DNA from: an uncultured Saprospiraceae bacterium
GTDB taxonomy: Bacteria > Bacteroidota > Bacteroidia > Chitinophagales > Saprospiraceae
Direction: 5' to 3'
Assembly: GCA_964423575.1 (NCBI GenBank)
Contig: CAYRFF010000008.1
Coordinates: 10,669 to 74,668, forward strand
DNA length: 64,000 nucleotides
Shown here: positions 5,632 through 57,462 of the stretch, one piece after another
Layout: each line of letters opens with the position of its first letter
How positions within the stretch are numbered: the stretch's first letter is position 1
Made by a program: the position numbers and the translations under genes
Notes under the pieces: model-generated
The model's database searches: none
Told to the model about the DNA's origin: nothing
The model's input: the letters and a program-made list of their open reading frames with translations, nothing else

Positions 5632-5643
5632 GCTTCCGCAAAT
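5632..5643 (-). repeat. iterated 12-mer ATTTGYGNAAGC, N=G
   Basis: Exact match. Intergenic, about 35 nt past the stop of 5680..7134, same sense. Confidence 0.8.
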
Positions 5644-52290: not shown

Positions 52291-52935
52291 ATGGATTTTA
52301 AGGATTTCTGGGATAAGCTTGTAAACTCCAAGGGAGCAAAAGATTTAAAGGATTTAGCTGAAATGACTGAAGACCAGATAGAGTCTATCGGTAAGAAGAT
52401 TCTTGAAAAGTCTAAATCTGCCGGAGATAAAACCATGGATTTTATCGATACTGAAGGCAGCAAGCTATTTGAGAAAGCAAAGAAACGCATAAAAGACATC
52501 ACTGAAAGAGGCACTGAAGAAATCAATGAATTTTTCAGAGAAAAAGACTCTGAAGAGGTTGATTTAGATGAGATTTTCGGCAAAGAGGATGTTGATATCA
52601 ACCCTGGTGAAGGCGAAGCAAAAGCCAAGTCTTCCAGTAAAAGAAGCAGTGATAAAAAGGGGGATTTTATTGATAAAATCCTAGCAAAAGTTGAGAAAAG
52701 TATCGATTCAGCCGAAAGGATAATAGATGATCGGACCAATCTGGAGGCTATTAAAGATATCAACCTTATTCCGGATGATTTTATTGAAAAAGCAAGACGA
52801 TTTGCAGACACTACACTTACTCGTGGAAAAAGTCAAAAGAAATCATCCACAGATCAGGACATAGCCGGTTTTACAGACCATGATGGCGATGGAGATCCGC
52901 TTATAGATGATGCACTAGTTGATGAAGATGTATAA
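52291..52935 (+). CDS. highly charged K/E/D-rich, probably disordered protein
   Basis: 214 aa with no hydrophobic core segments. The antisense ORF 52251..52811 is S/L low-complexity, as expected for the mirror image of this gene. Confidence 0.6.
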   Translation: MDFKDFWDKLVNSKGAKDLKDLAEMTEDQIESIGKKILEKSKSAGDKTMDFIDTEGSKLFEKAKKRIKDITERGTEEINEFFREKDSEEVDLDEIFGKEDVDINPGEGEAKAKSSSKRSSDKKGDFIDKILAKVEKSIDSAERIIDDRTNLEAIKDINLIPDDFIEKARRFADTTLTRGKSQKKSSTDQDIAGFTDHDGDGDPLIDDALVDEDV

Positions 52936-52954
52936 GGGAAGACTCCCCCACTAC

Positions 52955-52966
52955 ATTTGCGTAAGC
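52955..52966 (+). repeat. iterated 12-mer ATTTGYGNAAGC, N=T
   Basis: Exact match. 19 nt after the stop of 52291..52935, same sense, between convergent genes. Confidence 0.8.
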
Positions 52967-52973
52967 TAAATTA

Positions 52974-53465
52974 TTATCTATCCAGAATAGATTTTAAATC
53001 AGCAGGCGAATAATTCACTGATTTCAATACCTTTCCATCTGAGTTGCGATAGACAAGGAAATAGCCGTCTCTCTCAACGATATGACCTTCAGTCGCTTTA
53101 TTTTTACGGTAATGTTCTAGAGTCAATTCCGCTTCTTCACGTGTAGCACAGCGCTTACTCATATTTGACCTCTGAACTTCTTCAAATAACTGTCTGAATT
53201 TACCTCCCATACCAAATTCGTGAATAGCACCGGATAAAACATATTGGATGTCGCAGAGTGCATCAGCAATCTCTACAATATCATTATCGGCTATAGCTTG
53301 TTTAAGCTCGTTTAATTCCTCCTGCAGCAGGTTTATTCTCAGCTCACTGCGATCTTCAGTAGGGATAAGTGGATTGCGTTCTATAGGGAGTTCAAATGTT
53401 TTATGAAATTCTGCAACATCATTTAAGCCTTGCGGCTCACTGAATTTCTGTACTGTCTTGGTCAT
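52974..53465 (-). CDS. MazG-like all-alpha nucleoside triphosphate pyrophosphohydrolase family protein
   Basis: Acidic metal-binding helices LLQEELNELKQA and EIADALCDIQY (ExxE...ExxD pattern). 163 aa. Confidence 0.65.
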   Translation of the reverse strand: MTKTVQKFSEPQGLNDVAEFHKTFELPIERNPLIPTEDRSELRINLLQEELNELKQAIADNDIVEIADALCDIQYVLSGAIHEFGMGGKFRQLFEEVQRSNMSKRCATREEAELTLEHYRKNKATEGHIVERDGYFLVYRNSDGKVLKSVNYSPADLKSILDR

Positions 53466-53485
53466 GATTATGTTCTTTCAGAAAT

Positions 53486-53523
53486 GAGAAATCTTCCACA
53501 AACGCTTTTGCGGAAGATTTCTC
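53486..53523 (-). terminator. 17-bp stem hairpin downstream of the TPR gene, built from two inverted degenerate copies of the iterated motif
   Basis: GAGAAATCTTCCACAAA-CGCT-TTTGCGGAAGATTTCTC. The single mismatch becomes a G-U pair on the minus-strand RNA. The hairpin is followed on the minus strand by ATTTCT. Confidence 0.5.
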
Positions 53524-53562
53524 ACTAGGTTTTAATATCCTGCTTAAATAAAGCTATTACGA

Positions 53563-54879
53563 TTAGTCAAAGTATGAATTATCAAATCTTTCACCTTCCT
53601 GAATAGCATCTAGTCTTGCCTTAATTCCTTCACTATCCTCAAGCTGGTTCATACGTGCAAGAATTTCACGAAGACCTAGTAAAGTGTTTCTATCATTTGG
53701 ATTTAAGGACTCAGCCAATTTGAAGTAAGGCAGAGCTTTACCAAAATAATCTTTTACTAGACCATCCAATTCATCATATCTCTTTTGCTCCCTAAGGTCA
53801 AGAGTCTGCATTTCCTGAGTGAATGCTGCAGCTTTGTTAAAATACATCATACCGATAGAGTAAATCGCATCAAAGTAATCGGGATCAATATCAATAGCCT
53901 GATTGAAATAATCGATTGCCTTATGGAAGTAATCTTCAGCTTCCTCCGCATTACCGGCTTCTTCAGATTCCTGATTAAGGTTCATATAAACGTTACCAAG
54001 AGCTGATCTTACACTAGGATTATTGGGATCTTTTGCAATAGCTTCCTGTAATTTCTCTTCAAGAAGAGTATATTCTTCATTCTGGATAAGATAATTAATT
54101 TCAGCAAAAAGGATATTGGTGTTACCCGGGAACAACTCTTTACCCTTAGTCATAACCTTGGCAGCTTCTTCACTATTGCCGTCAGCATTCAATAGTGAGA
54201 ATAACAAACTGTACACTTGAGGTTCGTTGTAATCATTGCTATAAAGATCGTGTAGATATGCCTTGGCTTCTTCTTCTTTTCCGATTTGAGTAGCACATAC
54301 TGCAATAATATACTTTTGATTCAAAAGATTTTCTTTATCGGGGAAAACACTCTTTTCGTTATTTTCCTGAAGAATCTCTTCAATATCCAGAACTGCTTCA
54401 TAAGAATGATAAGCACGTCCATAATCAAGATTTCCTACATAGGCATTTCCCATAGCACTCAAGTAACTCGCATTTTCTGTAAGTCCTTTAAGAGCATCTT
54501 TCTTAAGGTATTGCTTATCGGCATTTTCATAAGCCCTCGTGTAAGATTCATAAGCAATAAGAGCGAGATTTTCATCCGGAACAGAACTCTGCCCCATTGC
54601 GATGGCGCTAGTAACCTTACCGGAAAGAGCGTTATAAATATCTCCTCTGAGGTTATGCGCTTTTGAATCATTGGCAAATTCATCATTAGACACTACTTGA
54701 TCCATCAAATCTCGGGCTTCATCAAGGTTTCCTTCATTATTGATTGGATTCATAAAATAGCTACTCAATGAACTATTAGCCTTTCTCATCATTTTCTTAG
54801 GATTCGCATCCTGAGCAACAGCCATTACACCCATCTGCAGGAAGAGTGCCAGGCTAAATAATCTTATTAGGTTTTTCAT
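53563..54879 (-). CDS. tetratricopeptide-repeat secreted protein
   Basis: Signal peptide followed by multiple TPR-like A..Y..A...P repeats. It lies downstream of gyrA on the same strand. Confidence 0.75.
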   Translation of the reverse strand: MKNLIRLFSLALFLQMGVMAVAQDANPKKMMRKANSSLSSYFMNPINNEGNLDEARDLMDQVVSNDEFANDSKAHNLRGDIYNALSGKVTSAIAMGQSSVPDENLALIAYESYTRAYENADKQYLKKDALKGLTENASYLSAMGNAYVGNLDYGRAYHSYEAVLDIEEILQENNEKSVFPDKENLLNQKYIIAVCATQIGKEEEAKAYLHDLYSNDYNEPQVYSLLFSLLNADGNSEEAAKVMTKGKELFPGNTNILFAEINYLIQNEEYTLLEEKLQEAIAKDPNNPSVRSALGNVYMNLNQESEEAGNAEEAEDYFHKAIDYFNQAIDIDPDYFDAIYSIGMMYFNKAAAFTQEMQTLDLREQKRYDELDGLVKDYFGKALPYFKLAESLNPNDRNTLLGLREILARMNQLEDSEGIKARLDAIQEGERFDNSYFD

Positions 54880-54987: not shown

Positions 54988-57462
54988 TTATTCTTCCTCA
55001 TCATACAAGTCGTCTTCGCCATCTCTTATCACTGCCACATCTGCTATCTCGTCCTTTTTATCCAGATCAATAACGATAACTCCCTGAGTCGCTCTTCCTC
55101 TGATATGAACATCTTCAACTGACATTCTTATTACGATTCCGTCCTTAGTTGTAATCATCAGATCATCTTCGGCTACAACCGCTTTCATGGAAACAAGCTT
55201 ACCGGTTCTATCGGTAATCGTCTGTGTAATAACACCTTTACCACCGCGATTAATGAGTCTGTACTCCTCAGACAGAGAACGTTTACCGATTCCTTTTTCA
55301 GAGATTGTCATGATTGTCATATCAGGCTCTGTACCGGAGATTGAAGATATTCCAATAATGTAATCGTCATCGCCATCCAGACGCATTCCTATTACACCCA
55401 TGGCATTTCTTCCCATCGGTCTCACATCTTCCTCATTAAATCTGATTGCTCGTCCATTGCGATTTGCAAGAATAATCTGATTGGTTCCGTCCGTGAGCTT
55501 CACATCTATCAATTGATCACCTTCAGCAATAGTAATTGCATTAATACCATTGGTACGCGGTCTGGAATAAGCCTCTACCAGAGTTTTCTTCACAATACCT
55601 TTCTTTGTTGCAAAGATTAAGTAGTTGTTGTTTACGTAATCCTCGTCTTCAAGGTCCTCGATGTTGATATATGCACGAACTTTATCTTCTCTCGGGATAG
55701 CCACCAGGTTCTGAATTACCCTGCCTGTTGAAGTTTTGGATGATTCCGGAATATCAAATACCCGTATCCAGAAACATCTTCCTTGCTCTGTAAACAAGAG
55801 CAGATAATTATGGGACTCCGCTATAAACATGTGCTCTATGAAGTCTTCGTCTCTGGTCTTGGAACCTCTAGAACCTTTTCCTCCTCTGTATTGAGTCTTA
55901 TATTCTGATACCTTGGTACGCTTGATGTATCCGAGATGTGAAATAGTAACTACAACCCTATCATTTGGAATAAGATCTTCAATTCTTATTTCGGAATCAG
56001 TATAGTCAATTTCCGATCTTCTATCGTCTCCGTATTCCTCTTTTACTTCAATGAGTTCTCCTTTAACAATTTCCTTTTGAATATCAACTGAACCCAGAAT
56101 CTCTAAGTATCGAGTAATTTGTTTTTGAAGTTCATCGTATTCTTCCTTGATTTTAGCACGCTCAAGTCCTGTAAGCGTTTGTAATCTCATATTGAGGATT
56201 GCCTTGGACTGTAATTCTGACAAATTAAATCTTGTCATCAAGCCTTCTTGTGCCTCATCAACAGTCGCAGATCCTCTGATAAGCGCAATAATCTCATCTA
56301 AATTATCAAGAGCTATCAATAATCCTTCAAGGATATGCGCTCTCTCCCTCGCTTTTCTCAGATCAAATTCAGTTCGGCGAACTATGACTTCTATACGGAA
56401 GTCAATAAAGTGCTGAAGCATTTCTTTTAAGGAAAGCAATTCCGGTCTTCCGTTTACCAATGCGATATTGTTCACACCATAGGAAGACTGCAAGGCAGTT
56501 AACTTATAAAGTCTATTGAGAACGACATTTGCAATAGCATCACGCTTGATATCTACCACAATTCTAAGGCCGTTCCTATCTGACTCATCTGCTACGTATG
56601 AAATCCCTTTAATTCTTTCCTCATTCACCAACTCGGAAATCTTCACCAGTAAAGAAGCCTTGTTAACCTGATAAGGAATTTCCGTAATGATTATCCTTTC
56701 TCTTCCTGTATCGGTCGTCGTGATTTCAGCTTTTCCACGTACCACTACTCTACCTCGTCCGGTTCTGAAAGCCTTTTTAACTCCTGAAATCCCTTGAATT
56801 ATTCCGCCTGTAGGAAAATCCGGTGCCGGAATATAGGTCATTAGTTCGTCGATAGTAATATCCGGATTGTCAATTGTCGCAATTGCTCCATTCACTACTT
56901 CCGTAAGGTTATGTGGCAACATATTAGTCGCCATCCCCACCGCAATACCCGATGCACCATTCATTAGGAGATTGGGAAGTCGCGTAGGCAACACTGTAGG
57001 CTCTTCAATCGTATCGTCAAAGTTGAGTGAAAAATCTACCGTATCTTTCTTTATATCCATGAGCAGCTCATGCGCAAGCTTGGTCAACCTGGCCTCAGTA
57101 TAACGCATTGCCGCAGCTCTGTCACCATCCATTGAACCGAAGTTACCCTGACCATCAACGAGTGTATACCTCAATGACCAATCCTGTGCCATACGCACCA
57201 TCGCATCATATACAGCTGTATCACCATGTGGGTGATACTTTCCCAAAACCTCCCCTACTATTCTGGCTGATTTTTTATGTGCTCTATTGTAGTTGAGTCC
57301 CAGATCATCCATTCCGTATAAAATACGTCTGTGAACCGGCTTTAACCCATCGCGCACATCAGGGAGAGCACGAGATACAATTACCGACATCGAATAGTCG
57401 ATGTAGGATTTCTTCATCTCATCCTCTATATTAATGGAAATAATCCTTTCTTTTTCTGCCAT
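54988..57462 (-). CDS. gyrA: DNA gyrase subunit A
   Basis: [17 protein letters not shown] and AAMRYTE (catalytic Tyr) motifs, with C-terminal beta-pinwheel repeats. 824 aa. Confidence 0.97.

Follow-up and report, generated by a model that had tools for sequence, protein, structure and literature searches.

A terminator-like hairpin behind gyrA-TPR in a Saprospiraceae genome and its partial likeness to an abundant genomic word

Between a MazG-like gene and a gene for a TPR-repeat protein that follows gyrA, a Saprospiraceae genome carries a long hairpin whose two arms both resemble a short word, ATTTGCGNAAGC, that is iterated throughout the genome. The locus raises the question of whether this hairpin is an inverted pair of word copies in use as a terminator, in the manner of the uptake sequences (DUS) of Neisseria and as the first-pass annotation had proposed, or an ordinary terminator that happens to look like the word. 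We addressed the question in a window of 64,000 nt (C8:10669-74668), in the whole assembly to which the window belongs (G000: 128 contigs, 39.6% G+C, 3.34 Mb, 98.5% complete) and at related loci. We consider it probable that the hairpin is an ordinary intrinsic terminator of the gyrA-TPR unit, likely a leaky one or an attenuator, and that its likeness to the word is coincidental, or vestigial at most, with no role in its function.

Structure and surroundings of the hairpin

The gyrA, TPR and MazG-like genes all lie on the minus strand. The features of the locus are given below in the order in which the minus strand is read.

54988-57462, minus strand: gyrA, 824 aa (PF00521/PF03989), upstream of the TPR gene
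53563-54879, minus strand: TPR-repeat protein gene, 438 aa, with its stop codon 39 nt upstream of the hairpin
53483-53526, minus strand: extended stem of about 20 bp, which needs a second G·U pair found on the minus strand only
53486-53523, minus strand: hairpin with a 17-bp stem and a 4-nt loop, minus-strand reading GAGAAAUCUUCCGCAAA-AGCG-UUUGUGGAAGAUUUCUC
53507-53523, plus strand: arm 2, reading TTTGCGGAAGATTTCTC, with a match to the 10-nt core of the word
53486-53502, minus strand: arm 1, reading TTTGTGGAAGATTTCTC, with 9 of the 11 fixed positions of ATTTGCGNAAGC matched
53466-53485, minus strand: 20-nt spacer from the hairpin to the MazG-like ATG, AUUUCUGAAAGAACAUAAUC, opening with a short, interrupted U-rich tail
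52974-53465, minus strand: MazG-like gene of the PRA-PH family, 163 aa (PF01503), starting 20 nt past the hairpin

On the plus strand, positions 53486-53523 read GAGAAATCTTCCACAAA-CGCT-TTTGCGGAAGATTTCTC. The arms form a stem of 17 pairs whose sole plus-strand mismatch, A53498 x C53511, becomes a G·U pair in minus-strand RNA. T53485/A53524 provides an 18th pair, and on the minus strand only, G·U pairing at 53484/53525 and A-U pairing at 53483/53526 lengthen the stem to about 20 bp. The calculated energy of the 38-mer is -23.4 kcal/mol on the minus strand versus -19.8 kcal/mol on the plus strand, and that of the 44-mer is -27.1 versus -22.0 kcal/mol. Folded in a context of 131 nt, the minus strand gives z = -3.96 and the plus strand z = -3.25, with none of 200 shuffles as stable. 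In the 3.34-Mb genome, 199 hairpins reach 12 bp or more, and this one ranks among the eight longest. The fold energies, the z-scores and this rank indicate that it is real and no chance structure. A regulated antiterminator fold was considered as well and dropped, the 131-nt fold offering no strong alternative partner for the 5' arm. Between gyrA and the TPR gene, which are 108 nt apart, there is no strong hairpin (fold z = -1.0).

These results bear out much of the first-pass annotation. Its 17-bp hairpin in the gap between the TPR and MazG-like genes was recovered with the same coordinates and pairing, as was the plus-strand A/C mismatch that turns into G-U in the minus-strand transcript. 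Its suggestion that this mismatch fits a function on the minus strand also holds up, since both non-Watson-Crick positions are G·U there and the fold is the more stable one.

The tail of the hairpin is less regular. The stem exceeds those of the typical terminators of the genome (median 12.5 bp) in length and in A+U content, and the RNA 3' of the 18-bp stem reads UUUCU and then GAAAG, an interrupted tail with four U in its first 5 nt. At a threshold of at least five T in 8, the hairpin does not score as having a U-tract, and a consensus terminator scan made no call at 53486-53523. When the upper 10 bp alone are counted as the stem, the tail becomes AUUUCUCAUUUCU, with 8 U in 13. A search of the hairpin against Rfam gave nothing above threshold, its sub-threshold hits being chance matches to miRNA hairpins.

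The iterated word and the arms of the hairpin

The word ATTTGCGNAAGC is present in 678 copies in the genome, against 1.9 expected under a third-order Markov model, and all of the most frequent 10-mers of the genome stem from it. Its profile over 802 sites is (C)ATTTGCGNAAGC(T), with an A at -1 in 85% of the sites and a C after AAG in 98%. The one-base variants in excess are -1 A>T with 90 copies and three substitutions within the 12-mer: C>T in letter five (32 copies), G>A in letter six (29) and A>C in letter eight (28). All remaining one-mismatch variants stay at chance level, with no general halo of decayed copies. ORFs contain 70% of the copies. Either orientation occurs there, and the copies are spread over all six frames with mild codings favoured; these and the other genome-wide locations rest on gene prediction of a crude kind (greedy choice of ORFs that begin with ATG and span at least 90 aa, giving 2548 genes and 83% coding). 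A second species of the same genus (G001) has 668 copies, while 29 further relatives have 0-58. A set of 80 Bacteroidota gyrA loci contains a single copy in total.

Two other roles for the word were rejected. Against a polar signal of the Chi or KOPS kind, the orientation of the word does not follow local GC skew (p = 0.44, Fisher's test). A role as promoter or 5'-UTR element had been hinted at by a flank profile pointing to downstream genes, and was dropped because 70% of the copies lie in ORFs in both orientations. The abundance of the word, its share in ORFs, its use of both orientations and of all frames, the lack of a link to skew and its restriction to the genus make it uptake-sequence-like, and from its sequence statistics it does look like a candidate of the uptake-sequence type. 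ComEC and DprA are present in most bacteria. Their genes were found in this genome and likewise in non-competent control genomes, and a secretin (PF00263) was not found in the 98.5%-complete assembly.

Within the window, copies of the word start for example at 5632, 27718, 36321 and 52955. One full word, CATTTGCGTAAGCT (52953-52967), lies in the 38-nt gap (52936-52973) that separates the MazG-like gene from a convergent K/E/D-rich ORF (52291-52935, plus strand), itself with no Pfam match. This word is missing from the equivalent gap of G001, which indicates that word sites turn over and are not conserved between both species.

Are the arms of the hairpin copies of this word? Each arm does carry the 10-nt core TTTG[C/T]GGAAG, just as annotated before. 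In full, the plus-strand arm is cT-TTTGCGGAAG-At and the minus-strand arm is cG-TTTGTGGAAG-At, so the core TTTGCGGAAG / TTTGTGGAAG is what they have in common with ATTTGCGNAAGC. Both arms, however, have an A in place of the C that is conserved in 98% of the sites, and both lack the A before TTTG (85%). In the plus-strand arm, a T replaces the latter and an A the near-invariant C, which makes two mismatches to the word family, one of them at the invariant position; the minus-strand arm has three mismatches. We counted as family members sites with all 11 fixed positions of ATTTGCGNAAGC or with one of the four tolerated variants; C>A is outside these variants, and neither arm belongs to the family.

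The genome-wide counts of such sites against expectation are as follows.

ATTTGCGNAAGA: 1 observed, 2.95 expected
TTTGCGGAAGA: 2 observed, 3.6 expected (the hairpin is one of the two)
TTTGTGGAAGA: 4 observed, 4.3 expected (the hairpin is one of the four)
TTTGCGNAAG followed by a base other than C: 20 observed, 23 expected

The class without the C is thus at chance level. There is no detectable pool of degenerate words, and a site of this kind has no statistical claim to the family. Nor are the two arms independent evidence, because a palindrome mirrors any match. The probability that a core match falls by chance in a strong hairpin is about 0.07 genome-wide (about 38 non-family core matches x 0.2% in hairpins, the roughly 200 strong hairpins making up 0.2% of the genome), an estimate that takes no account of how freely the core was delimited within the word. 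A true word on contig C103, TTTGCGGAAGCTTTCTC, is one base away from the arm.

Inverted word pairs and terminators across the genome

In Neisseria, closely spaced inverted DUS pairs are rho-independent terminators (PMC2397512), and the formation of terminators by inverted pairs of DUS in Neisseriaceae and of USS in Pasteurellaceae is attributed in that article to Ambur 2007 and Kingsford 2007. As summarized in a recent preprint, earlier studies placed an uptake sequence in 13-29% of the predicted terminators of these two families (bioRxiv 10.1101/2025.10.24.684340), and the survey in the same preprint arrives at a higher share.

The Saprospiraceae genome gives a different picture. Inverted word pairs in hairpin orientation within 30 nt number four among about 790 words, with two more in G001. 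Two of the four are located in a single intergenic region on C56 and two are inside ORFs; true inverted pairs near gene ends are few (two on C56, and C41). Neighbouring words within 100 nt of each other comprise 18 inverted and 13 direct pairs versus a Poisson expectation of 26 in all. Predicted genes are followed within 90 nt by 152 terminator-like hairpins, only one of which contains the word; among the 199 strong hairpins, three do.

We found one arrangement of two words that is clearly in excess, an overlapping palindrome of 22 bp, ATTTGCGNAAGCTTNCGCAAAT (centre AAGCTT), in which the words overlap by GC. The genome has four strict copies (C24:2487, C35:5403, C41:2662 and C79:3930) and three variants (on C1, C10 and C17), and G001 has one (C10:12102); seven copies at the exact spacing are far above chance. 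The orientation of the words in this palindrome is opposite to that in the hairpin at 53486-53523.

Two proposals of the first-pass annotation find no support in these counts. It had seen the hairpin as assembled from two degenerate word copies, whereas the arms miss the invariant C and the -1 A and belong to a class that is not in excess (2 versus 3.6; 4 versus 4.3). It had also taken the hairpin to strengthen an analogy with Neisseria DUS; the word occurs in 1 of 152 terminator-like hairpins against 13-29% of terminators in Neisseriaceae and Pasteurellaceae, and the search for inverted pairs after genes that it had recommended returned the four pairs within 30 nt and no recurring arrangement at gene ends. 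The rarity of the pairs, together with the near absence of the word from hairpins, indicates that the analogy fails at the level of terminators. What remains in common with DUS and USS terminators is a short word that is very abundant and lineage-specific and occurs both in genes and between them, and a hairpin at the end of a gene with 10 nt of this word in either arm. The differences are that its arms are not full words and miss invariant positions, that inverted pairs make up about 1% of the words and fewer than 1% of the terminator-like hairpins contain a word, and that the word is a putative uptake signal only, with no secretin gene found.

The result thus has a negative value, in that the hairpin no longer supports the reading of ATTTGCGNAAGC as a Neisseria-style uptake sequence. 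That the word does not build terminators in this genus is a real contrast to DUS and USS. The interesting object is the word itself, which two species of the same genus each carry about 670 times; the hairpin adds nothing to its case.

Orthologous loci and competing explanations

We compared the locus with its relatives. The best matches of the GyrA protein are Saprospiraceae MAGs at no more than 70% identity, scans of genomes and metagenomes gave no closer relative above about 70% protein identity, and a DNA search with the hairpin region matched only the genome itself. Among 14 related Saprospiraceae loci with the gene order gyrA-TPR-MazG-like, 13 have a terminator-type hairpin at the same place, 21-45 nt past the TPR stop (L084 at 1419-1450, L005, L009, L016, L021 and L035; further L091, L092, L105, L106, L109, L112 and L164). 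Their sequences are unrelated to 53486-53523 and the word is absent from them; most are followed by T-tracts with 5-6 T in 8. In G001, which keeps the gene order with a TPR protein of 53% and a MazG-like protein of 71% identity, the hairpin is a different one, ACCGGGGACAAA-GUGCUUAU-UUUGACCCCGGU followed by UUUAAUUUAU, and ends 15 nt ahead of the MazG-like ATG. Five of six further Saprospiraceae genome loci have a G+C-rich stem with a U-tract 3' of the TPR stop, and the sixth has a 20-nt gap between the two genes, without a hairpin. All seven syntenic metagenome loci show a textbook A-tract/stem/T-tract terminator, at a distance of 21-25 nt from the stop on one side and of 17-24 nt from the ATG on the other. 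The distance from hairpin to ATG is 15-25 nt in 10 of the 14 loci and 48-62 nt in four relatives. Such a pattern, in which the position is kept and the sequence is not, is what would be expected of an RNA structure with a generic job.

A terminator on the minus strand is supported by this comparison, which is the strongest line of evidence, and by the position of the hairpin, and here the first-pass annotation, which had called the structure terminator-like, appears to have been right: the hairpin follows the TPR stop by 39 nt, has its G·U pairs on the minus strand and has orthologous counterparts in place. In the proposed mechanism, the minus-strand gyrA-TPR RNA would fold into the stem of 17-20 bp and cause factor-independent termination. 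The stem's upper half, CUUCCGCAAA/UUUGUGGAAG, would then lead into the U-rich stretch AUUUCUCAUUUCU, part of which would pair with the A-rich 5' foot GAGAAAU. Matching A- and U-tracts are found in many terminators. The likeness to intrinsic terminators consists of a stable stem-loop on the sense strand soon after a stop codon with U-rich sequence next to it, of an A-rich 5' foot complementary to the U-rich 3' side, and of hairpins with other sequences at the equal position in orthologous loci. The unusually long (17-20 bp), A+U-rich stem and the short, interrupted U-tract set it apart from them.

Since the next gene begins only 20 nt on, termination is probably partial. The MazG-like gene would most likely be read through, or started upstream of or inside the hairpin, because the 20 nt before its ATG are too short for a typical Bacteroidota promoter. 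We infer both the termination and the read-through from what is observed at the locus, namely the structure, the asymmetry between the strands, the position and its conservation. Short distances of this kind have parallels in the genome, which uses classical A-tract/stem/T-tract terminators: of the 102 tandem gaps with a hairpin, 20 have it within 25 nt of the next ATG.

The same evidence bears on three other explanations. The first is that the hairpin descends from, or still is, an inverted word pair like the DUS and USS terminators of Neisseria and Haemophilus, given that a terminator stem tolerates any palindrome. The 10-nt core in both arms speaks for it, as do a word that is real, enriched (678 versus 1.9), genus-specific and spread like an uptake sequence, the true inverted pairs near gene ends on C56 (two) and C41, the rather low chance (about 0.07) of a core match in a strong hairpin, and the true copy TTTGCGGAAGCTTTCTC one base off the arm. 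Yet neither arm has the 98%-conserved C or the A that precedes TTTG, decayed copies are not in excess, so that no pool of degenerate words is seen, and the palindrome doubles any match that one arm has. Inverted pairs within 30 nt are scarce (4 in about 790 words, 2 in G001), close inverted pairs are no commoner than direct ones (18 versus 13 within 100 nt), the share of hairpins with the word is 1 of 152 rather than 13-29% or more, and the hairpins of the relatives lack it. We therefore regard a word-pair origin as rather unlikely, and quite improbable in the specific form of a decayed or nascent pair of the genus-specific uptake-like word recruited as the gyrA-TPR terminator. If true, this would be the first DUS-like word-pair terminator outside Proteobacteria, in Saprospiraceae (Bacteroidota).

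The hairpin might instead be an RNA element that does not terminate, either a 5'-UTR stem tuning translation or stability of the MazG-like gene, or a 3' stem guarding a processed gyrA-TPR RNA from exonucleases. Its end just 20 nt before the ATG (15 nt in G001) and its weak U-tail would suit such a role. In addition, the 3' arm contains a partial -7-like box, AGCGTTTG, with 6 of 8 positions of TAnnTTTG; at 41 nt before the ATG it is in the enriched range of this box, so that a start site inside the hairpin is possible. The match is a poor one, though, and there is no -33 element upstream. Clear T-tracts (5-6 T in 8) follow the majority of the orthologous hairpins, a feature that marks terminators and not stability stems, and in four relatives the hairpin is 48-62 nt from the ATG, which implies that closeness to the start codon is not required. 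An RNA element of this kind is, in our view, unlikely. As the 38 bp form a nearly perfect palindrome shortly ahead of a gene start, they could also act as double-stranded DNA, either as the operator at which a dimeric regulator controls the MazG-like gene or as another protein-binding site. This we hold to be very improbable, as the two imperfect positions are G·U on one strand and A·C on the other, an asymmetry that speaks for RNA, the genome has no more copies, and relatives even of the same genus keep a hairpin without its sequence, which an operator would be expected to retain. An ordinary intrinsic terminator thus remains the preferred reading. As a side observation on promoters, TAnnTTTG, the Bacteroidota -7 box, is enriched 20-60 nt before predicted ATGs of this genome relative to its reverse complement, with a peak at 30-40 nt.

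For operon annotation, the terminator reading would mean that the gyrA-TPR unit ends at the hairpin and that the MazG-like gene is probably expressed by read-through. The hairpin by itself is of small importance, being most likely one more intrinsic terminator or attenuator. Across the Saprospiraceae, a conserved attenuator may separate the gyrase unit from the gene of a nucleotide pyrophosphohydrolase, a suggestion drawn from the hairpins that follow the TPR gene, in most loci 15-25 nt ahead of the MazG-like start codon.

We also considered whether the hairpin belongs to a repeat. No further copies exist in the genome or in 30 relatives, and this single occurrence argues against a member of a repeat family or the end of a mobile element. 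The palindromic repeat families of the genome differ from it in sequence. Three such families, unrelated to the word, were noticed; they are mostly intergenic and have a REP- or MITE-like look. They are ATGTGTAGGGACGCACGGCCGTGCGTCCCTACACAT with at least 10 copies, AGATTTGCCAACTTTTAGAAAGTTGGCAAATCT with at least 13 copies, many of them on C17, and TTGTAGAACTAATTCATGAATTAGTTCTACAA with 5 copies. Examples of these palindromic repeats are located at C16:48172, C14:12276 and C21:15617, at C17:18904 and C17:15300, and at C5:72875.
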